Source: a virus (lineage: Duplodnaviria; Heunggongvirae; Uroviricota; Caudoviricetes). Taken from it: a stretch of 64,000 bases of DNA. Position 1 is the stretch's first letter. Every line of letters starts with the position of its first letter. The translations under genes were made by a program, and so were the position numbers. Positions 3,001 through 64,000 of the stretch are shown in pieces. Where the stretch lies: the IMG/VR virus record IMGVR_UViG_2675903278_000002; one strand, given 5' to 3'. Below the pieces are notes generated by a model. That model saw only the letters and a list, made by a program, of their open reading frames with translations, did not search any database and was not told where the DNA came from.

Positions 3001-3437
3001 TTGGTGGTTTAGGCAACTCTCAGTTCGGGTTCTACATGATTAACAAGTCACGAACCGCGAACGGCACGGATGCGAACGCATACCTCCAGAATGACGGTAC
3101 TTGGGTTTGCGGCGGTAATGGCAGCTTTAATGACGTTTATATCCGTTCTGACCGCCGTAGTAAGCGCAATATTCGCAAGATTGACCGGGCGCTCGACAAG
3201 CTGGAGCAGATCGAAGGTGTTCTCTACGAGATTCAGGTCTGTGGCCGTTATGAGCAGTCTGGTGGCCTCATCGCTCAGGATGTCCAGAATGTTCAACCTG
3301 AACTGGTAACGGTCGACCATAACGATCAGTCAGGAGAGCCTCGTCTGCGTCTTAACTACAACGGCGTTATCGGCATGTTGGTTGAGGCTGTCAAAGAGTT
3401 GCGCGAGGAAGTGCGCGAACTGAAGGCAAAAATGTAA
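27..3437 (+). CDS. Phage tail fiber protein with fiber repeats and C-terminal intramolecular chaperone (peptidase S74-like) domain; reading frame is open upstream to the window edge, so probably 5' partial
   Basis: 1136 aa ORF; duplicated NAATATKLQTARTIGGV(S/A)FDG(T/S)ANINLPGVNT motif typical of phage tail fiber repeats; C-terminal SDRRSKRNI ... LVEAVKELREEVRELKAKM resembles the autoproteolytic chaperone domain of endosialidase and L-shaped tail fibers; no stop codon between position 3 and the ATG at 27. Confidence 0.8.
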   Translation: MPQASSIVYIALIGGAGYNVGSPHQAGISELVLRAGNGNPKGITGALWKRTAVGLTNFAWINTSGDTYDIYVEIGNYATSVNIHWDCTANATVSIYTSPTYSASKPSSVTDGVVYTMYSTHQKPTPLDIGALPTTGGTVSGPLSVTGGLTGSLNGNASTATKLQTARTIGGVSFDGTANINLPGVNTTGNQNTTGNAATATKLQTARTINGVKFDGSADITLTPANLDVYSKSEIDNKKGMRKYTFSAPANAVSGKWYPIVFRRSGGNTDELASRVVITTYSSAGGYAMNNCEFNGFVMPGGWSDRGSYAAGFFSIYSTAERAIHSIISGVKDDDLCSVFYVEARAFPIKIFAEEGLNVIVPTADYAVGQTTYKWGATDPLSESTNAQIILDFKNGRGYYCSHPFISSLSGNAATATKLQTARTIGGVAFDGSANINLPGVNTAGNQNTTGNAATATKLQTARNINGVKFDGSGDININTLVSRGRVTALSGSTQGTAGIQMYEAYNNSYPTMYGNVLHMKGASASGEGEMLVGWSGTDGAHAPVYVRSRRDTSTANWSGWAQIYTTAHKPTAKDVGAAQAFSASYSTGAGNWTTAEFIAWLKERGAFEVPYWMMKGSWSYADNKIITDTGVGNICLAGAVIEVLGTEGAMTIRVTTPTTTTGGGIACAQFTYINHGSAYAPAWRRDYNTTLKPTAADVGALPSGGGTLSGALTLSMAAPSVQLRGQGTDTRQYIMAYRTDGATSWYVGKANNGSDNAMFWNYTGSNGIELAADGNVRINAKGKQFTFANNGNLGLVASLDQSSVPQGTYHQVALNTGTVGGKSYLRKFRGGNTDTIWHETVQGGFLRWATGNADEQEELSISTGYGVRARGEITSLSANGLRVAYGNYGFFIRNDGGTTYFLLTASGDKFGSWNALRPMYINNASGAVTMGNGLSLAGGLNVTSGNIRIPTSSTSWIDMRNNAALSNSSAVATSSASAIIRQEHADRHYFVGGLGNSQFGFYMINKSRTANGTDANAYLQNDGTWVCGGNGSFNDVYIRSDRRSKRNIRKIDRALDKLEQIEGVLYEIQVCGRYEQSGGLIAQDVQNVQPELVTVDHNDQSGEPRLRLNYNGVIGMLVEAVKELREEVRELKAKM
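481..700 (+). repeat. Copy 1 of an approx 210 bp intragenic duplication in the tail fiber gene (second copy at 1260..1470)
   Basis: Near-identical nucleotide and peptide segments encoding GNA(S/A)TATKLQTARTIGGV.FDG.ANINLPGVNT.GNQNTTGNAATATKLQTAR.INGVKFDGS. Confidence 0.7.
1260..1470 (+). repeat. Copy 2 of the tail fiber intragenic duplication
   Basis: Direct comparison with 481..700 in the sequence. Confidence 0.7.
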
Positions 3438-3503
3438 TCAAGGTGAATGGTGAGGGGCCACCCTCACCAATTCAGGATATTCACATCAAAAAGGAGATTA
3501 GAT

Positions 3504-4286
3504 GTGCCAATTGTCGGTGTTCCCGGTTGGATTGGGTCTTCGGCTGTCAGTGTGACAGGCCAGAGATGGATGAGTGCGGCTCGAACGGCGGTGCAACTGC
3601 CAGCGGCTGGTTCAATGTCTCAAATGGCCGGGCGATCTAAAGAAGTTCAGTACAGCATCGGTGCGAATCATAACTACAACAAAGACACACTGATCAACTA
3701 TTTAAAATCCCAGGGGGCGACGCCAGTCGTTGTTACCATTACAGGGGATCTGGTGTCGTCCAGTAGCGGCGTGCCATGTTTAGATTTCCCGAGTTCACTT
3801 ACCAACTCTTATATCAGCCTTGTAATCAACGCAGGTGTGACTGTCTATGGACGCGGTGGCAATGGTGGTAGTAACGCTGCCGGTGCTGCTGGTGGTAACG
3901 CAATTAATAATGGCATCGGTACACGCTTGCGTATTACGAATAATGGTGCAATCGCTGGAGGTGGTGGCGGCGGTGGCGGTGGTAACAGGGGTAAACTAAT
4001 ATTTGGTGGTGGCGGTGGTCGCCCATTCGGTGCTGGTGGGTCTTCCTCTCATATGAGTTCCGGTGCAACTGCTGGTACTATTTCCGCTCCTGGTAAAGGA
4101 TCTGTTGGTGAGGGGTCTCTTAGTGCATATACAGGCGGTTCGGGTGGTAATGTCGGTGCTGCTGGAGGAAGATGTAATACTCAAGGTAACGGTACAGAAT
4201 ATAACGGCGGGGCAGCTGGTAAAGCCGTAACTGGCAACGCGCCTACATGGACTAAAGCTGGGGCAATTTACGGCGCTCATGTGTAA
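3504..4286 (+). CDS. Glycine-rich hypothetical protein, possibly tail-fiber associated; proposed GTG start
   Basis: ORF 3447..4286; AAGGAG at 3491..3496 sits 7 nt upstream of GTG 3504; long poly-Gly tracts (GGGGGGGGGN, GGGGG); lies between tail fiber and lysis genes. Confidence 0.45.
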   Translation: MPIVGVPGWIGSSAVSVTGQRWMSAARTAVQLPAAGSMSQMAGRSKEVQYSIGANHNYNKDTLINYLKSQGATPVVVTITGDLVSSSSGVPCLDFPSSLTNSYISLVINAGVTVYGRGGNGGSNAAGAAGGNAINNGIGTRLRITNNGAIAGGGGGGGGGNRGKLIFGGGGGRPFGAGGSSSHMSSGATAGTISAPGKGSVGEGSLSAYTGGSGGNVGAAGGRCNTQGNGTEYNGGAAGKAVTGNAPTWTKAGAIYGAHV

Positions 4287-4360
4287 GTACTTACCTACCA
4301 AGTGTGGGCGTTTTATGATATAAAACCGCCATCCCGATTTGACTTTTCATGGAGGAAAAC

Positions 4361-4684
4361 ATGTCGAACGAGATGGCGGGCGTTACAACAGAGCAAGTTG
4401 AGCGTATTGCCGCGATCGTTGCTCGGGAGGTTGTTGGCAAATTAGGTAAAGAGCTACGTGAAGAAATTGGCCAGGAGGTCAATGATCAGCTGAAAACCTA
4501 CTTTGGTGATATGACCCCGGCGCAACATAGTATTCAACACTCCAATCTGGACAAACTCCTTAACCGGTTAGATTCCATCTCAAGTGGGTTCTTTGGCGGC
4601 ATTGTTTCTAAAATAACGTCGTTCATTATTACCGCACTGCTTTTGGGGTTAGCCGCGTATGGCGTAAAAAGTGGACTGCAATAA
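4361..4684 (+). CDS. Small membrane protein, holin candidate
   Basis: GGAGG RBS before ATG 4361; hydrophobic C-terminal segment ITSFIITALLLGLAAYGV; immediately upstream of the putative endolysin. Confidence 0.4.
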   Translation: MSNEMAGVTTEQVERIAAIVAREVVGKLGKELREEIGQEVNDQLKTYFGDMTPAQHSIQHSNLDKLLNRLDSISSGFFGGIVSKITSFIITALLLGLAAYGVKSGLQ

Positions 4685-4697
4685 CAGGAGATCAAGG

Positions 4698-5390
4698 ATG
4701 AAAACTCCGAGAGGCATTCGTAATAACAACCCTGGCAACCTCGACAAAGGTTCGCCGTGGCAGGGGCTAATCGACAACCCTGCCGAACCGCGCTTTTGCA
4801 CGTTTAAAGACCCTGTTTGGGGGATTCGTGCGCTGGCGGTGACTCTAATTACCTACCACGACAAACGTCGCGCAAAAGACGGCTCAAGTATCGATACCAT
4901 TCGTGAAGTTATTGAACGTTGGGCACCGCCGAATGAAAACAATACTGACGCCTACATTAATGAGGTGTCTAAAGCCGTTGGTGTAACCGCAGACATGATT
5001 ATCGATCTGCATGATTACGACATTCTTCGACCTTTGGTTGAGGCAATCATTCGCCATGAGAATGGGCGAGGTCCGCTAAAAACGCTGAACACCTGGTATG
5101 CGGCAGAAGTTATTGAGGAAGGTCTGCGTCGAGCTGGCGTTGTTAAGCCGGCGAAAACCGTGAAGGCTGTTCCTGTAACTAAAGAAACCGCAGGCGCAAC
5201 TGTTACAGCAGGTATTGGTCTGGCGCAGCTGGCCGATGTTATGCCGCAGGTTTCCGCTGCTATGGATAAAGCACAAGGTCATATCTCTAGCGGGGATACA
5301 GTACGCATCATCTTCGGTATTGCCACTATTGTTGTGGCAGGATTCATTGCCTGGTCGCAGGTAAGAAAACACCAGAAAGGGATGGTCTAA
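4698..5390 (+). CDS. Putative endolysin or peptidoglycan hydrolase (family not assigned)
   Basis: AGGAG RBS before ATG 4698; N-terminal GIRNNNPGNL motif; gene order small membrane protein - this gene - i-spanin - o-spanin matches a canonical lysis cassette; C-terminal hydrophobic segment is atypical. Confidence 0.45.
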   Translation: MKTPRGIRNNNPGNLDKGSPWQGLIDNPAEPRFCTFKDPVWGIRALAVTLITYHDKRRAKDGSSIDTIREVIERWAPPNENNTDAYINEVSKAVGVTADMIIDLHDYDILRPLVEAIIRHENGRGPLKTLNTWYAAEVIEEGLRRAGVVKPAKTVKAVPVTKETAGATVTAGIGLAQLADVMPQVSAAMDKAQGHISSGDTVRIIFGIATIVVAGFIAWSQVRKHQKGMV

Positions 5391-5811: not shown

Positions 5812-6333
5812 TTATTCTTCGAACAATTTTTCGATAGATTTTGTAGGATAGAACAAAGAACGCTCGTTGTTACCAACCAGCTGGATAAAGCCTAAACTTT
5901 TATAAAACGCCTTGGCTTTGTCATTTAACGCCTCAACGAAAAGTCCATGAATGCCTACAGCAAGAGATGCATTGTACACAACGCGCATTGCATGTGTTAC
6001 AAGCATTGAGCCAAATCCTTGACCTTGAAGGGACTTGTCCAAAGCCAGCCTACCCAAAGTAACACTTGGAACATTCCGATAAGGAACCTTCTTTTGTTTG
6101 CTTCTTGAAGGTAAGGACTCCTTTTCAAAACAACTACCTGACAAAGTGTAATATCCTAACACTTTTGGCCTTTCTTCTTGAGTGCAAAGCACATAAGCAC
6201 GAAGAATTTTTCCCTCATGCTGCCTTTTTAAGTGGTTGGCTAAAAAGGCGTTTAGTGACTCTTCGCCGCAATCAAAACCGTTTAGATCATAATCTTTCTC
6301 TCCAGAGAAAATCTCTATCGTTGTATTGCTCAC
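5812..6333 (-). CDS. GNAT-family N-acetyltransferase toxin (TacT-like)
   Basis: 173 aa; acetyltransferase-like core (QGQGFGSMLV, FY motif); directly downstream of and co-oriented with a DUF1778-like antitoxin gene. Confidence 0.7.
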   Translation of the reverse strand: MSNTTIEIFSGEKDYDLNGFDCGEESLNAFLANHLKRQHEGKILRAYVLCTQEERPKVLGYYTLSGSCFEKESLPSRSKQKKVPYRNVPSVTLGRLALDKSLQGQGFGSMLVTHAMRVVYNASLAVGIHGLFVEALNDKAKAFYKSLGFIQLVGNNERSLFYPTKSIEKLFEE

Positions 6334-6340
6334 GAGTAAA

Positions 6341-6610
6341 CTACTCCATGCTTTTCAGACGATCAGCAGCTCGTTTCAGCTTGTCGTTCGGTGCCGGAGG
6401 ATTGCTTATAGCGTCCATAACCAGATTCCAGGATTCTTCATTCAGAACTAGTCTACGGTGTTGCTCTATAACTTTCACGGCACGTTCAGATGCACTGCTA
6501 ACCATAAACTGAGTAATGCTCTGGTTAGACATTGCGGCAGCTTCCTCGATGATGCTTTTATCGTCATCGGTTAATCTCAAATCGATGCGCTGCTTTTTTA
6601 GTGCTGACAT
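6341..6610 (-). CDS. DUF1778 (TacA-like) ribbon-helix-helix antitoxin
   Basis: MSALKKQRIDLRLTDDDKSIIEEAAA... matches DUF1778 antitoxins; GGAGG RBS before the ATG at 6610; 7 nt gap to the toxin gene. Confidence 0.7.
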   Translation of the reverse strand: MSALKKQRIDLRLTDDDKSIIEEAAAMSNQSITQFMVSSASERAVKVIEQHRRLVLNEESWNLVMDAISNPPAPNDKLKRAADRLKSME

Positions 6611-7956: not shown

Positions 7957-8007
7957 TTATATTGGGCGTTTGTTACGCCCAATATATGAGTTGAAGGATA
8001 GACACCA

Positions 8008-9714
8008 ATGGAATCGATAGAAGTATTTTTAAAAAATTTTTTGGACTCAGATCATCGGGTTGCTGTCATAAAAGGAAATTGGGGAGTAGGTAAAACGCAT
8101 TATTGGAATAGCTTTTATACTAAACATTCTAAAAAATTAGATTTTAATGCATATTCATATGTTTCTTTGTTTGGAATAAATTCTATTGGAGACATTAAAA
8201 AAGCTCTTTATCATTGTGCCACACCAATTAATGAAAAGAAATATAAAGAACTGATTTTATCTGAAACGGATCGAACTATGATTCGTTATAGAAATGGGTT
8301 TTGGGGATGGTTGAAATACAACTCCTTGTCAAAATTTTTAATACATTTTGGAAAGAACGATTTTTTTGGGTTCAAAACTGATAATCTGCTGTCATCTCTT
8401 GAGTATAAATTTGTTAATAATTATTTGGTTTGCATTGATGATATTGAACGAAAAGGTAGTGCGCTAGAAATTAAAGAGATTATGGGGGTAATTGATGAGT
8501 TGGCAAGAAGAAAAAATTGCAAGGTTGTTCTAATATTAAATGAAGATAACTTACATGAAGAAACTGCACAACAACAGTTTTTAGAGTATAGAGAAAAAAT
8601 AATTGATGTGGAAATAAAATACGATCCCACGCCTGAGAAAAACTTAAGAAAAGTTTTTTATGAGACTGACCCTGATTTTCTTTTGTTAAAAAACCTAGTA
8701 AATGATTTAAACATCAAAAACATTAGAATATTAAATAAAATAAAATCATCTCTAGTTATATTTAGAGATGTGCTAAAGTTAGCAGAGGATAAGGTTAGAG
8801 AAAGTTTTATTAATAGATTGGTCTTATTTTCAGTGGTTTACTATTTTGGTGTTCCTAGCGTTGATTATGCTTCATTTAAGGAGTCAATCAAAAATATACA
8901 TGCATTCGACTATATGTTAGATGATAAAGATGAAAAGGAAGAAGTTAACTCTGTATATTCATTTGTTAATAGCCTTGATGTTATTTATGAACGAGCAGAA
9001 AGTGCTTTCGATGATGATATAGATTTTTACCTTAAGAACGGTTATGTTTCTTCTGAAAGCAATATTCTAAATATAATAAAAGAAAAAAATGAACAATATA
9101 GAGATAATAGGGTTTTATGTGAGGTTTATAAAATTTGGGATGTTTTTAGAAACTCTTTTAAAGATAATGAATCAGAGTTTATTTTTCAAATTGAGCGCGT
9201 AATTAACGATAGTCTGTTGCGTATACCAATTGGACAGTTCGTAGGTTTAATAAATGTCCTAATTAAATTGGATAGAGATTGTAATAATATTATAGAGGCA
9301 TATGCAGATGCTTTTGTTAATAAAGACAATGCGTATGCTACATTTAATTCTTTGCGAGTAGAGATCTTCGGAAATGAAGAATTAGGTTTCAGAATTGAAA
9401 AAAAATTGAAAGATAGAAATCCAGATGACTATAACTTAGATAAAATTATAAAAAAAATAGCTGGTGGAAGATTTAACCATAGTGATGTGAATATTCTTAA
9501 CAGTTTTTCTAAAGATGATTACGTAAACTGGATATTATCCTGTGATCAGGATGCTTTGAATTTAGTAGAAGAGACTATGCTCAAGTTCAAGGGTATGCAA
9601 CACCCGACAGACGAACAGAAGAGCATCACTGATAAAGCAATAGAAGCTTTGGAGGAAGTTGCTTCAAAATCAACACTTAATAAGCTGCGTGTTAATAAAA
9701 TACTCAATCATTAA
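8008..9714 (+). CDS. KAP-family P-loop NTPase
   Basis: Walker A GNWGVGKTHYW near the N-terminus, diagnostic of KAP NTPases; 568 aa; coding sequence visibly far more AT-rich than neighbours. Confidence 0.75.
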   Translation: MESIEVFLKNFLDSDHRVAVIKGNWGVGKTHYWNSFYTKHSKKLDFNAYSYVSLFGINSIGDIKKALYHCATPINEKKYKELILSETDRTMIRYRNGFWGWLKYNSLSKFLIHFGKNDFFGFKTDNLLSSLEYKFVNNYLVCIDDIERKGSALEIKEIMGVIDELARRKNCKVVLILNEDNLHEETAQQQFLEYREKIIDVEIKYDPTPEKNLRKVFYETDPDFLLLKNLVNDLNIKNIRILNKIKSSLVIFRDVLKLAEDKVRESFINRLVLFSVVYYFGVPSVDYASFKESIKNIHAFDYMLDDKDEKEEVNSVYSFVNSLDVIYERAESAFDDDIDFYLKNGYVSSESNILNIIKEKNEQYRDNRVLCEVYKIWDVFRNSFKDNESEFIFQIERVINDSLLRIPIGQFVGLINVLIKLDRDCNNIIEAYADAFVNKDNAYATFNSLRVEIFGNEELGFRIEKKLKDRNPDDYNLDKIIKKIAGGRFNHSDVNILNSFSKDDYVNWILSCDQDALNLVEETMLKFKGMQHPTDEQKSITDKAIEALEEVASKSTLNKLRVNKILNH

Positions 9715-9722
9715 TAGATTAT

Positions 9723-9789
9723 GACCTGCTTCCGTATGTATTTAATAAGTTACTTATTATTTGTATATACAGAAGCAGGTCTTTTAAAG
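9723..9789. terminator. Large hairpin (10 bp stem GACCTGCTTC/GAAGCAGGTC, AT-rich 39 nt loop) followed by TTTTAAAG; putative terminator; same stem sequence recurs at 56751..56815
   Basis: Inverted repeat read directly in sequence downstream of the KAP NTPase stop. Confidence 0.4.
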
Positions 9790-9895
9790 ACACCCACCAG
9801 AACAAGTCCCTTCCGTTTCCACTTCCAAAAACTGCCACCAGTCGCTATCATCCGCTCATTGTGATAAGTAAGTAACTACCTACCAGGTGAGCCAC

Positions 9896-10636
9896 ATGAG
9901 CCAAATCTTTTTCGATACCATCGACAACGACCAGTACGACTTCATGACAGAGTGGAATACCGCTGTTATGGACAAGTGGGTTGCTGAAAACATTGGTTTG
10001 TCGCGCTGCAAAGACGAGGCTGAACTGTTTGAGACGAAGTGGTTTGATTACCGCGATATGCATCCTCTCATGGCCACCTGTCTGTTTACGGAGGCATACA
10101 AACGTCAGTACTCAAATATCATGCTGACGCACGGTCGTGAACACTTTGAAACAGCTCCGTTCACCACCGGGTTAAAACGCTTGCCTTATCAGGAGTTGTC
10201 GACTGCTAATAAAACGTCGCTATGGAAAGCACGCCAGTTTGCGGATCGCTATTGCTGCTCATACGACTACTTTATCTCCACTGTTCTTTCCGCAGCTGCA
10301 CGACGTCTGTGGGACAAGCTGCCTCGCCCACAGCATTTGTGGCAGCCAGAACTGATTGAGATATTTGAAGAGAAATTAGCCAGACGCGCAACAACCCGTC
10401 TGGATGACTCTCTGGTTAGCTTTAAGCATATGGGAGACATGCAGTTCAACCCGATTCAGGAAAGCTATTTTGAGTGGATTCTGGAGCGTTTGCGCACCAT
10501 CCCTCGCAGCAAGCGCATACGCGCAATTTTCTCCGCTATCTGGCTAATGGAAATCGTTCCAGAGCGCCTTATTTCCGACCACTTTCCAGAAGAACTGGAA
10601 GAAGCACGGCGGTTTATTGATCCCCTATCTAATTAA
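9896..10636 (+). CDS. Hypothetical protein
   Basis: ORF 9887..10636; AGGTGA RBS-like sequence 5 nt before ATG 9896. Confidence 0.5.
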   Translation: MSQIFFDTIDNDQYDFMTEWNTAVMDKWVAENIGLSRCKDEAELFETKWFDYRDMHPLMATCLFTEAYKRQYSNIMLTHGREHFETAPFTTGLKRLPYQELSTANKTSLWKARQFADRYCCSYDYFISTVLSAAARRLWDKLPRPQHLWQPELIEIFEEKLARRATTRLDDSLVSFKHMGDMQFNPIQESYFEWILERLRTIPRSKRIRAIFSAIWLMEIVPERLISDHFPEELEEARRFIDPLSN

Positions 10637-10679: not shown

Positions 10680-12020
10680 ATGACCGAACTTTGCCATACA
10701 GGACGCGGGCTGTCCGAAGAGTTTGATGAAGATTTCCAGAACAGACTGACGGCATATTTTTGTCGTGATCACGAGTTTCTTACTCGTGCGGGAGATCTGG
10801 TTGTGCCTAGCCAATTTGCCAATGCGGCCAATGCCATATTGGTTAATATGGTTTCGGGCTATTACCGTATGTACAAGAGCGCGCCCTCTTCATCTGCAAT
10901 TCTGGATATGCTTAAGCGTGCGAAACGCGATAAGACTATCCGTGAGGAACTATTCGCCGATGTTGTTGCTGCGTTTAAGCGCATCCTTGCAGAAAAATTG
11001 TCCGATACCTCGTACATGGTTGACCAGGTATCAACCTTCGCAAAAAGCGTAGCGTTTGATGATGCTCTGATTAAGGCTGCTGAACTGAAAGAGAAGGGCG
11101 ACTTTCAGGGGGCGATGGCAATCATGGCCAAGGTTCAGCAGATTGGATCGAACGAAGCGACCGGAATCTATGACTACTACACCTCCGCAAGTGAGCGATT
11201 GAAAGCGCGTGAATATGAGGCTTCAGAGGAGTATGTACCAAACAGTATTACAACTGGACTCCCTCTTCTCGATAGGTTGCTGTACCAAAAAGGCTGGGCA
11301 AAGCGCGAAATGGTGCTCTTCATGGGGTTCGCTAAATCCGGTAAATCGACCGCAATGGGTGAGTTTTCCATAAACGCAACGCTTGCTGGCTACAATGTTC
11401 TGTATCTCTCGCTGGAGGTTCACACCAACATTTTGTCCGACCGTTTTGATGCAAGATTGTCGGAGACGGAAATGTCCAAGTTGGTGGAACGGCGCGATGA
11501 AGTTCATCGTAAGTTGGCAGAGTTGGGAGCCTCTAAGGGGATTGGTAGTTTGTGGGTTGTTGAGCGTCCGTCAGGAAGTATGTCACCGGCAGATCTGGAC
11601 CGTATGCTTAACAGCATGAAAGCCAACGGCATGGTGCCTGATATGGTTGTTGTCGACTACGCAGATTTGATGCGTGCCAGTTATGACCTTCGTGATGATC
11701 GCGCCAACATTCGTAGTATCTACACCGATTTACGTGCTCTTTATGACAAACATAACGTTGCTGGAATCACGGCATCGCAGACAAACCGTGAAGGTGGCGC
11801 GTCAGAAGTTGCCACAATGATGCACGCCGCCGATAACATCGAAAAAGTACGTATTGCTGACCTGGTAATAACGATCAACAAAACCGAAGAAGAAGAAGCG
11901 AAAGGAGAGGCTCGTCTCTACTTTGCTGGTTCACGTAACCAGCAGGGTGGGATCAGCATTCGCGTTAAACAAAACCTCGAACAAATGCGTTTCATTGAGC
12001 GAATCTTAGACGTTACCTAA
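10680..12020 (+). CDS. DnaB-like replicative DNA helicase
   Basis: Walker A GFAKSGKST in a RecA-like C-terminal domain; 446 aa; adjacent to primase. Confidence 0.8.
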   Translation: MTELCHTGRGLSEEFDEDFQNRLTAYFCRDHEFLTRAGDLVVPSQFANAANAILVNMVSGYYRMYKSAPSSSAILDMLKRAKRDKTIREELFADVVAAFKRILAEKLSDTSYMVDQVSTFAKSVAFDDALIKAAELKEKGDFQGAMAIMAKVQQIGSNEATGIYDYYTSASERLKAREYEASEEYVPNSITTGLPLLDRLLYQKGWAKREMVLFMGFAKSGKSTAMGEFSINATLAGYNVLYLSLEVHTNILSDRFDARLSETEMSKLVERRDEVHRKLAELGASKGIGSLWVVERPSGSMSPADLDRMLNSMKANGMVPDMVVVDYADLMRASYDLRDDRANIRSIYTDLRALYDKHNVAGITASQTNREGGASEVATMMHAADNIEKVRIADLVITINKTEEEEAKGEARLYFAGSRNQQGGISIRVKQNLEQMRFIERILDVT

Positions 12021-12101
12021 AAAATAAGCGTGGAGAACACCTCCACGCTTGATTCATTTGTGAAACAACTTTTCTTTTGCCAAACCACAAAAGAAAAACA
12101 C

Positions 12102-13280
12102 ATGAGCCTTTATGTTATATCAACATTTAGGTTGGTCACAATATTGCCTGTTAAAAGTGGAATTATCGTGAGCGAACTGAAAGAGCTAATTACCGAATTA
12201 GATTTTGAACAATGGTTGGACACTGAAGGTATCGTTTATCGACGTGGAGGCGTGAGTGCTCGCGGTCGTGAAGTGAATATCAAGGAGTGTCCGGTATGCG
12301 GCAGCTCCAACTGGAAGGTATATTTCAATCTGACCAGTGGCGTAGGCAAATGCTTCGCTGGTGATCATCCCGAAGAGATTCAGTTCAATAAGCTGGTCTT
12401 CCTCAAGCACTACAGCGGCAAATCACGACGACAGTTCGAGGAATATGTGCAGAACGCTCTTCTTTCCCAGGGGTGGGCACCAAAGAAAGAAGAGATAGTG
12501 CTTGCAAGCACAGTCGAGTTAGAGGGACCACTTGCACTCCCTCGTCATTACGAACTTCCTATAGATGGTCGTCTTCCAGACTATCTGGTTGAACGAAACA
12601 TATCGCCTGAAATGGCAAAGTATTTTGACCTACGATACTGCGTCGAAGGCAAGCACGCTTATGTAGATCCGTATACAGATCAGGTTAAAGGACAGATATT
12701 CGATATGCGAATACTGATACCGGTTTACGATCTGGATGGGGTAATGAAGACATTTCAGGGGCGAGACATTACCGGTACAGCTGAACGTCGCTACCTCTTT
12801 CCTATGCAGCTTCCAGCTTCAGGTAAGTTTCTCTACAACGGCCATAATGCGGTCGGCAAACAGACTGTAGTTGTCTGTGAGGGGGCGTTCGATGTTATGG
12901 GGGTTAAACGAGCTATTTTTGATGAAGAAACATTACGTGATTACGTGGAACCGATAGGAACGTTCGGGATGCATCTATCTGGTAACACCACTCAGGATGC
13001 AGAAGATCAGTTAGGCGCGTTCCTGACGCTCAAGGCGCGTGGGTTACGTAATGTGATCATGATGTGGGATAGTGAAAAGCAAGCTATACGTAATACGATG
13101 GCCGCAGCCAGGCGACTGACCAGTATTGGTCTTAATGTCAAAGTGGCGTGTTTGGGCGAGGAAGGACTCGACCCGGGCGATGCAACGCCAGAGCAAATCA
13201 TCAAAGCCTATTATCGGGCAAAACCGTATACCAAGCAGTTGGAGTTACAAAGCAAGGTTTTGGGCATTAAGGCTCTATGA
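12102..13280 (+). CDS. DNA primase (zinc-binding domain plus TOPRIM)
   Basis: CPVCGSSNWKVYFNLTSGVGKCFAG zinc ribbon; TOPRIM-like VVVCEGAFDVMGV; ATG 12102 is preceded by the recurrent AAAAACACATG context; the longer GTG 12030 start lies inside a hairpin. Confidence 0.75.
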   Translation: MSLYVISTFRLVTILPVKSGIIVSELKELITELDFEQWLDTEGIVYRRGGVSARGREVNIKECPVCGSSNWKVYFNLTSGVGKCFAGDHPEEIQFNKLVFLKHYSGKSRRQFEEYVQNALLSQGWAPKKEEIVLASTVELEGPLALPRHYELPIDGRLPDYLVERNISPEMAKYFDLRYCVEGKHAYVDPYTDQVKGQIFDMRILIPVYDLDGVMKTFQGRDITGTAERRYLFPMQLPASGKFLYNGHNAVGKQTVVVCEGAFDVMGVKRAIFDEETLRDYVEPIGTFGMHLSGNTTQDAEDQLGAFLTLKARGLRNVIMMWDSEKQAIRNTMAAARRLTSIGLNVKVACLGEEGLDPGDATPEQIIKAYYRAKPYTKQLELQSKVLGIKAL

Positions 13281-56135: not shown

Positions 56136-56729
56136 ATGATTGCAGCCGAAAAAATCAAACAGCGAAAGCGCGACAACTCTCTTCGTGACCTCTGGAGAAC
56201 ACCTGACTGGCTGTTTTCTGCCATTCAACGTTATCTTGGAGTGACATTTGATGTTGACGTTGCCTGCAACAAGGACAATGCAAAGCTGCCTAATTTCATA
56301 GGCGTTGAGCGTGATGCTTTGAAATCTGAATGGGGACAGCCAGGTACAATTGCCTTCCTCAATCCACCCTACTCCAAAATCTCCCCCTGGATTGATGCGG
56401 CTATACGTGAGCAGGCTCGCGGAGTTACAACAGTGATGCTAATTCCTCAATCCCTAGATACAAAGTGGTATGAGCGTGCAACAGAGTGTGCGAATGAGAC
56501 GATTATTCTGTCTGGTGGCCGCGTAGCGTTTGTCGAGCCTGACGTCAATCTGGGTCAGGTAGAAGTAAACATCAACCCAGGTGGCAGTATGCTCGTTGTT
56601 TTTCGAGGATTCTGTCAGGACGCTGGGCACTCTATAAGCAAGATCCCTTTGGACGTCATGAAAAGTCTGGGAGGGTATGATCCTGCGAATGTGATCAGGA
56701 AAAAAAGACCATCAAAGAAGGCTGCTTAG
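56136..56729 (+). CDS. Phage-type DNA N6-adenine methyltransferase (orphan, Dam-like)
   Basis: WRTPDWLF N-terminal motif and catalytic NPPYS; 197 aa. Confidence 0.7.
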   Translation: MIAAEKIKQRKRDNSLRDLWRTPDWLFSAIQRYLGVTFDVDVACNKDNAKLPNFIGVERDALKSEWGQPGTIAFLNPPYSKISPWIDAAIREQARGVTTVMLIPQSLDTKWYERATECANETIILSGGRVAFVEPDVNLGQVEVNINPGGSMLVVFRGFCQDAGHSISKIPLDVMKSLGGYDPANVIRKKRPSKKAA

Positions 56730-59977: not shown

Positions 59978-60547
59978 ATGTGCAAGAAATGCAAAGCGAT
60001 AGCTGATGAACAAAACGCCTTATTCGAAGAAATGGATGCTAATGAACTGGTCAAAATGTTAGCCATTCTTCGAGGAATAGAAGACGTTTCCATATTTGAG
60101 AGAGTGGTTACAGCACTTAATTTTGAGTCCACCTTTGAAGAGCCAACTCAGGTTGTAGCTTTAGCACATCATTTCGGTGTTCATTATCTTGCTGAAAAAG
60201 AGCGCGCTGATAAGTTGCAGGCGACTTTGGATATGGTGAGCGAGACTCAACGAACTGATGACACTAACAAGAGTGAGGCGATTATTGCCAGCAAAGATCG
60301 TGAAATTGCTGGGCTTAAATCCTCTCTAACGATGTTGATGTCTGCGTTCAATCTTATGTCTTCTCAGGCGGGTTATAAAATGCCATCACTAAACAGCGAT
60401 GATCCGATGGCCGTTCGTCAGCTTTTGGGAGCAATGGCCGACCAACTCGACGACACAAAGAGTCGGCTTGAAGACATGATGCGTGAGTTAAGCCATCGAC
60501 ATAACCTCGCAACACAGCCACACAAAGCCTTTCAAAGCTCTAATTGA
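59978..60547 (+). CDS. Hypothetical protein
   Basis: 189 aa ORF with GGAAAAACACATG start context. Confidence 0.5.
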   Translation: MCKKCKAIADEQNALFEEMDANELVKMLAILRGIEDVSIFERVVTALNFESTFEEPTQVVALAHHFGVHYLAEKERADKLQATLDMVSETQRTDDTNKSEAIIASKDREIAGLKSSLTMLMSAFNLMSSQAGYKMPSLNSDDPMAVRQLLGAMADQLDDTKSRLEDMMRELSHRHNLATQPHKAFQSSN

Positions 60548-60602
60548 TCTGATATGGCCGCATGATCGGCCATATTGTGTTGATAAAAAACAAGGATGAA
60601 AA

Positions 60603-60884
60603 ATGGCATACGGTACAGGGATTTACAACAATAAAGGAATTAACGTTACTGGCTTCCTTACTCCTATTTTTTTTCTTGATCGATTTACTGCGTCATCAGG
60701 CTCTAAGACGTACTCCAATCCGCCACCGGGTAAATCGCTACATGCCGTGTGGTCATTGATGCCTCTTAACAACGACAACTACATTAATTTACCTGTTCCA
60801 ACAGTTACTATTAATGGAAATACGGTTAGTTGGTCAAATTTATATACGGGGCTTGGTTCTTACATATACACATACTGGGGATAA
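60603..60884 (+). CDS. Hypothetical protein
   Basis: 93 aa ORF in an AT-rich segment. Confidence 0.35.
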   Translation: MAYGTGIYNNKGINVTGFLTPIFFLDRFTASSGSKTYSNPPPGKSLHAVWSLMPLNNDNYINLPVPTVTINGNTVSWSNLYTGLGSYIYTYWG

Positions 60885-60886
60885 TT

Positions 60887-61501
60887 ATGTTCGGGATGTC
60901 AATTACTCAATCAGATGGAAGTTTGTGGATGAGTCCAGAATTTACTCCGCAAAATCTGATTAATAAAGGGACAATGTCTACATCTAAAGGTTCTGTTTTT
61001 CAAACATCAATCCCATCAAACAAATCATGCTTTTTCTTCATAAAAAGCAGTAATAAGGCGAACATGATGTTTATTCATGAGCATAGTAACGGATACAATG
61101 CTCTCAGATTGCATCAGGTAAATGGTAGCCCCGGAACAATAACAGTTTATGCTTTTTCTGATATGGTGTTACCACATTCTGGCTATGGCATTGCCATGTA
61201 TAACAGCGCAGGCGCAATGGTGTATCACGGTGAGATGATGCCCCTTGATGCGAAACTTATCACTATTTCTGACCCTCAATTTACAATAGATATGGGGTAT
61301 CCATGTGCGGTAATGCCTGCTATGGTTGGGGTATATAACTATAGACGAACCGATTACGACAGACCTGTCTATGTAACAATGACAGGTGCAACTGGAAACC
61401 AAGTATATAACGGTCAATGGTATTCCGGTAATGTCACATGGGATATTAAGAAGATTTATACAAACAAAATTCTGGTGATAAATACCTCCAAGTATGATTA
61501 G
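60887..61501 (+). CDS. Hypothetical protein (possibly secreted or membrane)
   Basis: ORF 60830..61501; ATG 60887 follows a GGGGA RBS and the upstream stop; AT-rich. Confidence 0.4.
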   Translation: MFGMSITQSDGSLWMSPEFTPQNLINKGTMSTSKGSVFQTSIPSNKSCFFFIKSSNKANMMFIHEHSNGYNALRLHQVNGSPGTITVYAFSDMVLPHSGYGIAMYNSAGAMVYHGEMMPLDAKLITISDPQFTIDMGYPCAVMPAMVGVYNYRRTDYDRPVYVTMTGATGNQVYNGQWYSGNVTWDIKKIYTNKILVINTSKYD

Positions 61502-61604
61502 CCAATGCCTTTATTTGAAGGATTGCCTGTTTATTTCTATTTAGTACCTTTTCATTTTTGAAATAATTGCACCATTAAACAAATCACTTCTTAATGGTGC
61601 AATT

Positions 61605-63290
61605 ATGAATACAGCCCTTTCCATCATCGACGATGCCAACTCAAACACTGCTATCGACTATCGGCAGGAAATGAACGTCATCCACGAAATTGTGGCCGAG
61701 TGCGAGAAAGAGATCGCCTTCATGTATCAGGTACACGACTTCGTTTATGGCGACGAACGCCACAACATGATTAATCGCCTGCTGAGACTAAACCATCGAC
61801 CAGATGAAGATCGCTCGCGTTTAAATCGAGGTTGGTTGGATAAAGTCGATCTGGAATGGGTGAAACAGAATATTTGGGCCGAGTACTGGAGGAAGGTCAC
61901 GGACATGACTAACGTTTTGCTGATCATGCCAGCTTCCCGTCGAGATGAGTGGCGCGAGCAGTTTATAGAGGGCAAACAGGAAGTCATCAAAACTGACAGA
62001 ACCGGCTACCAGATGAAGGTTAAAGAGTTCGTTGGTGTACCGGAGTTCAAAGCAGAAACGGTCATACCCACGATGCTTAATTTGCTGAATGACAGGCACA
62101 AATATCTCTCTGAGCGCGTGTATGGCTTGTTTAAGGCGCTGAGTCCTGCGCACAAGACAAATAAGACAAACGGTTTCAGCGAACGTCTGATAATCGCTGA
62201 CTGCATTTCTGATTTCTGGCGGGACAGCGTTAGTGTGAACTATCGCAAAGAGGACTATATCGACGATCTGCGTGTCTTGCTTCATTTCTTCGCGCACAAA
62301 GAATTTATTACCATCAACCGCACTGCTGAGGTGCTATCAGCTGCGTATCGGGCAAACGACTGCCAGACCGGTGACTGGATGAACGTCGATGGAAATCTAA
62401 TGCGCGTGAAGATGTTCAAGAACGGCAACGTTCACTTTGAAATACATCCTGACGTGGCCTGGAAGTTGAATGAGGTGCTGGCTTACAGTATGCCTGCTGC
62501 AATCCCCGCGCCATGTCGCACCGCGCCAAAAACACGGGCACCAAAGCAGTTCGGGTTAATCCAGAAGACGATCTCCGTGCCGGTTCGCACTGCGCTTCGT
62601 GACGGGCGATTAAGCAAAGACAAAGGCGTATGGTACTTCTCTGATTCAGCTCTCCAGAAGTCGCAGGTGGAAGAGCTTGAGCGCACACTGAGCTTCATTG
62701 GCGGCGTGCAGGAGAAAAAGCACTGGCAGTTCCCGTATGAGATCGGCCATACGCTAAATACGATTGTGGCTACCGGATTAATACCGGATACAAAATCACA
62801 CCAGTTCTACCCTACCCCACGCTTGATTGCTGAGTACGTTGCCAGAGCCACTGAATTGAAGTCTGGTGAGAAGCTGCTGGAGCCTCAAGCCGGACGTGGG
62901 GATCTTCTGGCCTATATCAACGCCGATCTGGAAGATGTTACCTGCATAGAAATCGCACCTCTCTTCGCTGATATCCTGCGCGGAAAAGGGTATACGAACA
63001 CGATTTGCTGCGACTTCATAAAGTGGTCTGAGGACAACGTAGGTTATCAGTTCGACAAAATCGTTATGAACCCGCCGTACTCGCTTGGTCGTCATAGAGA
63101 GCACACGCTGGCTGCGCTGGGGCATCTGAAAGTCGGCGGGCGTCTTGTAGCAGTATTGCCGGGCACTGCGCCAATACTGGACTGGATGACGATGGATAAT
63201 TACGTTTATGCCAGAGGGAAGTCGTTTACCAACGAGTTTGAAGACACAGGGATCACAGTCAGCGTATACGTTTTCAAACGCGTTAAATGA
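61605..63290 (+). CDS. Large protein with C-terminal DNA methyltransferase domain (N6-adenine or N4-cytosine class) and an uncharacterised N-terminal domain of about 400 aa
   Basis: C-terminal SAM-binding-like LEPQAGRGDL and catalytic NPPYS. Confidence 0.55.
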   Translation: MNTALSIIDDANSNTAIDYRQEMNVIHEIVAECEKEIAFMYQVHDFVYGDERHNMINRLLRLNHRPDEDRSRLNRGWLDKVDLEWVKQNIWAEYWRKVTDMTNVLLIMPASRRDEWREQFIEGKQEVIKTDRTGYQMKVKEFVGVPEFKAETVIPTMLNLLNDRHKYLSERVYGLFKALSPAHKTNKTNGFSERLIIADCISDFWRDSVSVNYRKEDYIDDLRVLLHFFAHKEFITINRTAEVLSAAYRANDCQTGDWMNVDGNLMRVKMFKNGNVHFEIHPDVAWKLNEVLAYSMPAAIPAPCRTAPKTRAPKQFGLIQKTISVPVRTALRDGRLSKDKGVWYFSDSALQKSQVEELERTLSFIGGVQEKKHWQFPYEIGHTLNTIVATGLIPDTKSHQFYPTPRLIAEYVARATELKSGEKLLEPQAGRGDLLAYINADLEDVTCIEIAPLFADILRGKGYTNTICCDFIKWSEDNVGYQFDKIVMNPPYSLGRHREHTLAALGHLKVGGRLVAVLPGTAPILDWMTMDNYVYARGKSFTNEFEDTGITVSVYVFKRVK

Positions 63291-63351
63291 TAGGTAAATA
63301 CTTACCTAATTTGTGTAAGAATGTAGTTACTAAACGATAAGAGAAAAACAC

Positions 63352-64000
63352 ATGAACAACCTCCAGTTAGAGCATTTTAACGTCACAGGCCATTCTGATT
63401 TTCCTTTCAAGTTTACATTGAAAGGTTATGCAGAGGATGCGGTAGGCCAGATCATTATTGATAAAGGCATCGTTAAGTTTGAGGGGGATTTTGATGAATC
63501 CGCGAAAACATTCATAGACTTCGTTGCCAAACGTTGGAGCGAGCAATGGAAAAACCTGGAAAAGCGCGCCAATGAGTTTGATCGGTTCATGGATGCAATG
63601 GATACAGCAAAAGAGGCTCTTGATGCCGGGACTCCGTTAGATCTGGAGTCACTTTTCAACGGCGAAGTGGCCTCTGCGATGTTCGCCACCATGTTCGCGG
63701 GTGAGTTCGTCCGCAGCGGTGCCAAAAACTACCTTGAGCTGGATTACAACGTCCCTGCAATTGGCGATTTCGTCGTTACCATCCAACGCAAAGAAGGTAA
63801 GACGCCAGGTGAACGCGTCGCAGAACTTGAGGCTGTTGTGGATCAGCGTAACGGAGAGTGTGACCGTTTGATCAACGAGCTTCATGCACTTCGGGAAGAA
63901 AGAATATGCGCGGGTAGCAATACACGTAATGCAGCGGATATCTACTTCCAGTTAGTTGAGGAATGCCAGATTCCACCAGGCGGCTCTCTTGTCGATTACG
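63352..64000 (+). CDS. Hypothetical protein, 3' partial (runs off the window)
   Basis: Open frame from ATG 63352 to the window end with GAAAAACACATG start context; absent from the ORF track, presumably because no stop lies in the window. Confidence 0.45.
   Translation, partial: MNNLQLEHFNVTGHSDFPFKFTLKGYAEDAVGQIIIDKGIVKFEGDFDESAKTFIDFVAKRWSEQWKNLEKRANEFDRFMDAMDTAKEALDAGTPLDLESLFNGEVASAMFATMFAGEFVRSGAKNYLELDYNVPAIGDFVVTIQRKEGKTPGERVAELEAVVDQRNGECDRLINELHALREERICAGSNTRNAADIYFQLVEECQIPPGGSLVDY

Follow-up and report, generated by a model that had tools for sequence, protein, structure and literature searches.

A DUF4942-methyltransferase protein of an SSU5-like phage-plasmid: a predicted orphan DNA adenine methyltransferase with an accessory domain shared with plasmid leading regions

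We analyzed a 64,000-nucleotide stretch of viral DNA (Caudoviricetes; IMG/VR record IMGVR_UViG_2675903278_000002), hereafter the window, and focus on a gene at 61605..63290 on the + strand whose 561-amino-acid (aa) product joins a DUF4942 region to a C-terminal methyltransferase domain. We favor, at slightly better than even odds (about 0.55), the reading that this product is an orphan DNA adenine methyltransferase that binds DNA through DUF4942, a linker, and an adaptor module, has fixed or relaxed specificity, and protects the element from restriction. Several lines of evidence support this reading. The fold and motifs are intact, the best profile matches in the PDB are to the gamma-class enzymes M.TaqI and HsdM, and PADLOC profiles and, in most family members, Pfam N6_Mtase match as well. 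The gene sits in a replication module, and its homologs lie beside orphan methyltransferases and, in four contexts, never beside a recognizable endonuclease. In addition, the catalytic core is related to domains of giant phage proteins, and for two of these the annotation is DarB-like antirestriction protein. Protection against restriction is documented for orphan methyltransferases from phages and plasmid leading regions (PMC11541004, PMC7736820).

The proposed mechanism is as follows. The catalytic domain (aa 396-561), which has no target-recognition domain of its own, would act as an S-adenosylmethionine (SAM)-dependent amino-methyltransferase. The conserved, mildly basic DUF4942 core, together with the linker and adaptor (aa 83-395), would bind the substrate, most likely DNA. 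Methylation of adenine N6 in phage-plasmid and host DNA would follow and, together with the action of a neighboring Dam-family enzyme, would probably shield the element from restriction upon entry into, or replication in, a new host.

The protein and its family are already catalogued in RefSeq, Pfam, and PHROGs; they belong with the orphan methyltransferases of mobile elements, and their accessory domain is uncharacterized. The gene itself is ordinary, and the wider value lies in DUF4942. Interest comes mainly from the link to YdiA, an abundant stand-alone DUF4942 protein of plasmid leading regions, and from the permutation of the domains. In the literature, we found no functional study of DUF4942, SSU5 or pHCM2 methylation, orphan methyltransferases of phage-plasmids, or plasmid ydiA, and no methylome or biochemical data on N6-methyladenine (m6A) formation by the family.

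The gene, its element, and the anatomy of its product

The interval holds a single long open reading frame (ORF), with an ATG start and 561 codons plus a stop. A first-pass annotation, made from the sequence alone, had described a large protein with a C-terminal NPPY methyltransferase domain, and this description stands: the ORF has the same boundaries as the RefSeq coding sequence WP_021520151.1 on NZ_CP020118 (an Escherichia coli plasmid, 100% identical), the proteins are identical, and the domain is predicted to have a class-I SAM fold with motif X, motif I, and NPPY. Many E. coli plasmids encode this very protein under the name “DUF4942 domain-containing protein.”

At the nucleotide level, the gene shares 97.9% identity with its counterpart in Escherichia phage Cyrano and 89.6% with SSU5_095 of Salmonella phage SSU5, which bears the annotation “DNA methyltransferase.” The gene is carried by 557 plasmid records and conserved throughout the SSU5 group, and its close DNA relatives occur in 251 of 5,426 complete E. 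coli genomes (about 4.6%), almost always plasmid-borne. These data confirm the phage-plasmid origin presumed at first pass and mark the window as SSU5-like. The element is non-conjugative.

We aligned 27 family members, with a lowest identity of 33% (a Variovorax prophage). AlphaFold2 (AF2), run with the family alignment, returned confident models, with a predicted local distance difference test score (pLDDT) of 81.8 for the full length and likewise for aa 1-395. From the AF2 models, the pattern of conservation, and comparison with relatives, five segments of the protein can be distinguished. These, the catalytic motifs, and the ORF itself are as follows.

61605..63290, + strand: complete ORF of the DUF4942-methyltransferase protein; identical to WP_021520151.1, full-length match to PHROG 6263
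61605..61850, + strand: acidic helical N-terminal segment, aa 1-82; predicted helices at 15-48 and 52-62, first ~17 aa disordered (AF2)
61851..62519, + strand: DUF4942 core, aa 83-305, predicted alpha+beta fold (AF2); Pfam PF13708, E=1.7e-20
62520..62585, + strand: basic linker, aa 306-327 (RTAPKTRAPKQFG...); isoelectric point (pI) 11.3 in the window protein, lower pLDDT
62586..62789, + strand: small alpha/beta adaptor module, aa 328-395; AF2 pLDDT about 87-93
62790..63287, + strand: minimal seven-stranded Rossmann methyltransferase domain, aa 396-561 (AF2 secondary structure)
62802..62819, + strand: motif X-like QFYPTP, aa 400-405; Q400, F401, Y402, P403, and P405 invariant in 27 sequences
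62877..62906, + strand: motif I LEPQAGRGDL, SAM-binding loop, aa 425-434; P427, A429, G430, and G432 invariant in 27 sequences
63069..63080, + strand: motif IV NPPY, catalytic amino-methyltransferase tetrapeptide, aa 489-492; N489, P490, and P491 invariant, position 492 Y or F

PHROG 6263 (“DNA methyltransferase”) matches aa 1-561 against profile positions 1-548 of 548 (E=7.1e-300). The N-terminal two thirds had been called uncharacterized, and in that sense the label holds, with DUF4942 as the only match and no convincing solved-structure relative in the PDB. The region is, however, not free of motifs, although none had been recognizable by eye: the Pfam DUF4942 match covers aa 140-295 (74 bits against a gathering threshold of 25), recurs in 27/27 aligned homologs, and falls in a region of ~395 aa with 36 invariant positions. 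Similarly, the proposed N-terminal domain of about 400 aa is real as an accessory region, but it consists of four segments and not of a single domain.

Conservation is unevenly spread over these segments. The N-terminal segment has no invariant position, a pI of 5.1, and about 10% identity to distant members. The DUF4942 core carries the conserved motifs HKTN (183-186), DDLR (220-223), DG (262-263), HxxxHP (277-282), and AIP (299-301), and has 16.1 invariant positions per 100 aa versus 15.7 in the catalytic domain. Since DUF4942 is conserved as strongly as the catalytic domain, specificity is probably fixed or relaxed and not diversifying. Across the family, the median pI is 8.8 for the DUF4942 core and 9.8 for the linker, versus 5.4 for the catalytic domain; this contrast between basic and acidic parts suggests DUF4942 as the DNA binder. 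The adaptor accompanies the catalytic domain, is absent from stand-alone YdiA, and is matched together with that domain as a single unit by phrog_9133 (aa 328-560). In the AF2 model, the last Rossmann strand forms the C-terminal end of the protein and no C-terminal target-recognition domain follows; substrate recognition would therefore have to come from another part.

The catalytic domain and its probable substrate

Residues 396-561 are predicted to form a complete class-I SAM methyltransferase fold with intact catalytic motifs, in all likelihood an amino-methyltransferase with the linear order X, I, IV of the gamma type. LEPQAGRGDL (aa 425-434) and NPPYS (aa 489-493; nucleotides 63069-63083) lie within the last 170 residues, as first noted, and QFYPTP aligns with the TPPEVV region of M.TaqI. 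That the motifs are invariant down to 33% identity indicates selection and not chance matches. The invariant catalytic NPP(Y/F) also speaks against a non-catalytic, SAM-binding-like fold, the finding that the first-pass annotation had named as refuting its reading.

Structural comparison of the catalytic domain with the PDB by Foldseek returned the DNA enzymes HsdM, M.BseCI, CamA, and M.TaqI at E-values of 5e-8 to 1e-6, mixed with class-I methyltransferases of RNA, lipids, and histones. The family profile, searched against PDB sequences, placed M.TaqI first (3.3e-4), followed by EcoR124 HsdM (5.5e-4) and another adenine DNA methyltransferase, and then Erm and KsgA. PADLOC profiles matched mad2 (5e-15) and a Type II methyltransferase (2.8e-10). 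The Pfam methyltransferase matches of the window protein itself are all sub-threshold, N6_Mtase (PF02384) reaching 13.7 bits against a gathering threshold of 20.4; across the family, N6_Mtase matches 21/27 members at E<0.1, with a best homolog at E=7.9e-6.

We have considered that the substrate may not be DNA but host RNA, as m6A or N2-methylguanine (m2G) in rRNA or tRNA, or a protein glutamine, with DUF4942 recognizing that target. Pfam MTS matches 19/27 members (best 5.4e-7) and RrnaAD 5/27, NCBIfam gives weak matches to KsgA and Erm, and the Foldseek matches include PH1948, Trm11, TrmN, and RlmL/K. Furthermore, NPP(Y/F) is also found in HemK, RsmC, and RsmD. We nevertheless regard a non-DNA substrate as quite unlikely: the best profile matches are DNA enzymes, as are the PADLOC and PHROG relatives; QFYPTP is of the (F/Y)(Y/F)TP type, which we take to be typical of HsdM, Eco57I, and TaqI-like DNA enzymes; and the gene consistently adjoins other DNA methyltransferases. 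Sequence comparisons thus leave DNA as the best-supported reading of the substrate, not a proven one, and the predicted product would be m6A.

DUF4942 in two fusion orders and alone

The first-pass annotation presented the protein as a large fusion. The joining of two parts in one protein is real, but it is not unusual. Among 1.84 billion cluster representatives, a profile built from aa 1-395 matched 1,531, of which 416 scored E<1e-30, and the best 150 of the 1,531 are mostly 510-580 aa long with the N-region in front. DUF4942 plus methyltransferase is therefore the normal architecture of a large family and no one-off fusion. We found no other domain partner of DUF4942 among 120 homologs, the best 150 representatives, and ten members of atypical length.

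The reverse order also exists. In the Fusobacterium phage phiFN37, the 525-aa protein WPH65337 (locus 3195-4769, - strand) has an N-terminal core with DFYPTP, LEPSAGKGD, and NPPF, followed by DUF4942 at aa 275-472 (E=7e-31). The same arrangement is found in Tunturiibacter phage Tunturi_5 (16291-17877), and it is common to 12 phage records, an Acidobacteria phage included. The DUF4942 of these proteins sits in the position of the gamma-class target-recognition domain. Fusion to the same core in both orders argues for functional coupling.

DUF4942 also occurs alone. YdiA is a 282-aa protein encoded on an IncK2/Z plasmid (NZ_CP116073, 28506-29354), between ardA/psiB and oriT and two genes from the mobA/relaxase genes. 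It ends at the equivalent of aa ~305 of the window protein, and the representative has no SAM-binding or NPPY motif and no catalytic domain. The label “methyltransferase,” attached to the YdiA family in UniProt-derived annotations and in the table of Samuel et al., looks like a misnomer by association. Stand-alone DUF4942 ranks with the families most strongly enriched where plasmid leading regions begin: in Samuel et al. 2024, YdiA is leading-region family 24, with 2,171 members, a false discovery rate (FDR) p reported as 0, and a median position of 1 from oriT on the transcribable strand. In total, DUF4942 is present in 4,380 plasmid records, mostly conjugative.

The plasmid that carries YdiA has no homolog of the window catalytic core (best tblastn E=0.76). 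Its only methylase has the beta-class order, with DPPY before FAGSGS, and does not match that core. DUF4942 therefore has a function independent of the window-type enzyme. A two-subunit model, where stand-alone DUF4942 serves a separately encoded core of the same type, is unsupported, since this plasmid has no such core.

This independence raises the possibility that DUF4942 is an autonomous establishment or anti-defense module, with incoming DNA or a host defense or repair protein as conceivable binding targets, and is not needed for methylation; the fusion would then co-deliver two protective activities. The location of YdiA beside oriT as leading-region family 24, the lack of a matching core on its plasmid, and the occurrence of the catalytic core without DUF4942 inside giant phage proteins all fit this proposal. 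We still rate it as rather unlikely, given that the catalytic domain has no other substrate-binding domain and that DUF4942 is fused in both orders to this core and, among the proteins surveyed, to nothing else. In addition, H183, R223, D262, and H281 are invariant in the fused clade and not in stand-alone DUF4942, which suggests adaptation to work with the enzyme.

Among the roles first offered for the N-terminal region, target or substrate binding is favored and a nuclease is disfavored. A nuclease would make the protein a single-chain restriction-modification enzyme of the Type IIG/IIL kind. Some phage records do annotate homologs as “RE endonuclease,” and the fused clade has invariant H183, D221, D262, H277, and H281. 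We consider this highly improbable: no N-terminal PD-(D/E)xK or other nuclease domain was found in the window protein, and the candidate catalytic residues are not conserved. A metal or nuclease site built from H183, D221, D262, H277, E279, and H281 was rejected on the same grounds, as E279 is variable and stand-alone DUF4942 has lost H183, D262, and H281.

The core-specific fusion in both orders, the leading-region enrichment, and the lack of a structural relative together yield a testable hypothesis, that DUF4942 is a DNA-targeting module. We extend this with low confidence: DUF4942 may be a new, structurally unprecedented nucleic-acid-recognition or anti-restriction module that alone, as YdiA, acts on plasmid DNA at entry into the recipient and, when fused in either order, directs broad methylation to incoming or replicating mobile-element DNA. 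If so, the phage-plasmid enzyme provides an experimental handle on a very abundant, uncharacterized leading-region family.

Genomic context and comparison with known systems

The gene lies in a replication and nucleotide-metabolism module that includes DnaB, ligase, Pol III alpha, an SbcC-like protein, ribonucleotide reductase (RNR), RNase T, Dam, and RNase H. It had been counted as the second orphan methyltransferase of the window, and both parts of that claim hold. The other enzyme is a 197-aa Dam-family protein at 56136-56729 on the + strand (Pfam PF05869, E=2.5e-38); the identical plasmid labels it “phage N-6-adenine-methyltransferase.” The gene is an orphan: no nuclease among the neighbors was matched by Pfam or PADLOC, no hsdS was recognized in the neighborhood or annotated on the identical plasmid, and no restriction gene is recognizable nearby or annotated on that 111-kb plasmid, whose gene table is incomplete.

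Distant homologs occupy diverse mobile elements and usually adjoin other orphan methyltransferases. In lambdoid prophages, they lie in the early regions with N6_N4 and C5 methyltransferases next to them; an IncHI1 plasmid and a plasmid-like contig each carry one adjacent to Dam, and one phage has its homolog near terminase. Homologs also occur in Aeromonas, Pseudomonas, and Marinomonas phages. A conserved partner gene was sought and rejected, as the flanking genes differ in every context examined.

The start of the gene carries a further feature.

61563..61606, + strand: perfect 16-bp inverted repeat with a 12-nt loop (ATAATTGCACCATTAA / TTAATGGTGCAATTAT)

The AU of the start codon forms the end of the repeat, within which a GGUG Shine-Dalgarno-like element is buried; the RNA folding energy is -20.6 kcal/mol (z=-6.1). 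This start-codon hairpin could possibly serve translational or operator control. Phage Cyrano has the identical repeat, but pairing stays perfect only within the E. coli lineage; in SSU5 and the Klebsiella relatives, the repeat has decayed to a short ACACCA/TGGTG core. As a conserved regulator, the hairpin was rejected on account of this lineage specificity. No sigma-70-like promoter was found on either strand of 60500-64000, versus a shuffle expectation of 6.0 +/- 2.4. From about 54.4 kb onward, every gene lies on the + strand, an arrangement suggestive of a long operon or of a non-canonical promoter.

These features bear on another reading, in which the enzyme, like Dam or CcrM, methylates specific sequences to regulate the phage-plasmid life cycle epigenetically (control of replication, lysis-lysogeny, or packaging) and does not serve to counter restriction. 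The position of the gene in the replication module next to a Dam-family enzyme and its conservation across the whole SSU5 group would suit such a regulator, the strong hairpin suggests tight expression control, and conservation of the accessory domain would be consistent with a single, fixed target site. However, the hairpin is not conserved beyond the E. coli lineage, and the homologs reside in very different elements (lambdoid prophages, IncHI plasmids, and Aeromonas, Pseudomonas, and Marinomonas phages) that share no replication module. A distribution over such unlike elements fits a generic protective function better, and we judge an epigenetic regulator unlikely. Should the favored protective enzyme prove to be an adenine methyltransferase of relaxed specificity, this would help account for the crossing of restriction barriers among Escherichia, Salmonella, Klebsiella, and Enterobacter by SSU5-like phage-plasmids.

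Several observations concern the surroundings. The downstream gene, 63352-64000 (+ strand, running off the window end), is called Ead/Ea22-like in the annotation of phage Cyrano. Its only match, DrmE_N (E=0.007), is below threshold, and the gene does not accompany the distant homologs of the methyltransferase gene. About 4 kb downstream of the SSU5 ortholog lies SSU5_104 (11903-12139 of the SSU5 locus), a DUF1380 protein whose equivalent position is beyond the window end. Samuel et al. list DUF1380 (YcgB) as leading-region family 7; the SSU5-like arm therefore shares several families with the leading regions of conjugative plasmids. Elsewhere in the window, annotation of a near-identical plasmid identifies a GNAT-family acetyltransferase (5812-6333, - strand) and a DUF1778 protein (6341-6610, - strand), which together look like a GNAT/DUF1778 toxin-antitoxin pair. 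Between this pair and the methyltransferase gene, the coordinate offset from window to plasmid shifts by 404 bp, which points to an indel between the two. The GC content of 8001-10000 is 0.31 versus about 0.46 elsewhere; this stretch coincides with an ORF at 8008-9714 (+ strand), which encodes a 568-aa KAP-family P-loop NTPase (Pfam E=7.7e-6) and is probably a horizontally acquired accessory or defense gene.

Among known systems, the gamma-class N6-adenine DNA methyltransferases M.TaqI and HsdM share with the window protein the X, I, IV order, an (F/Y)(Y/F)TP-like motif X, NPPY, and the seven-stranded Rossmann fold. Unlike them, the window protein has no C-terminal recognition domain or HsdS partner; its accessory region lies at the N-terminus, and no solved structure matches it convincingly. 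The reverse-order proteins of phiFN37 and Tunturi_5 are alike in FYPTP, LEPSAGxGD, and NPPF, in 35% core identity, and in their DUF4942 accessory domain; they differ in that DUF4942 is C-terminal and that they belong to phages of distant phyla. YdiA resembles the window protein over the shared positions of aa 83-305, where W95, T102, W116, Q119, P146, T185, N186, G274, H277, N289, and P301 are among the invariant residues. In contrast, YdiA is encoded by the first gene after oriT in conjugative plasmids, whereas the window protein adds the adaptor and catalytic domain and is encoded in a phage-plasmid replication module.

The methyltransferase domains of giant proteins of Serratia phage Parlo (3,764 aa) and Aeromonas phiARM81mr (3,190 aa) are 30-39% identical to the window core, and PHROGs 15406, 11358, and 10691 also match that core. 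These proteins, of 2,800-3,900 aa, contain many other domains and no DUF4942 was seen in them, although they were not scanned in full. Their annotations are DarB-like antirestriction or virion structural protein.

Functional analogues of the proposed role are M.EcoGIX and M.BceJIII, orphan leading-region methyltransferases that are single-strand-specific, have a relaxed SAY specificity, and protect entering DNA (Fomenkov et al. 2020, PMC7736820). The window element differs from this type in being non-conjugative, and a leading-region location is seen only for the stand-alone DUF4942 relative.
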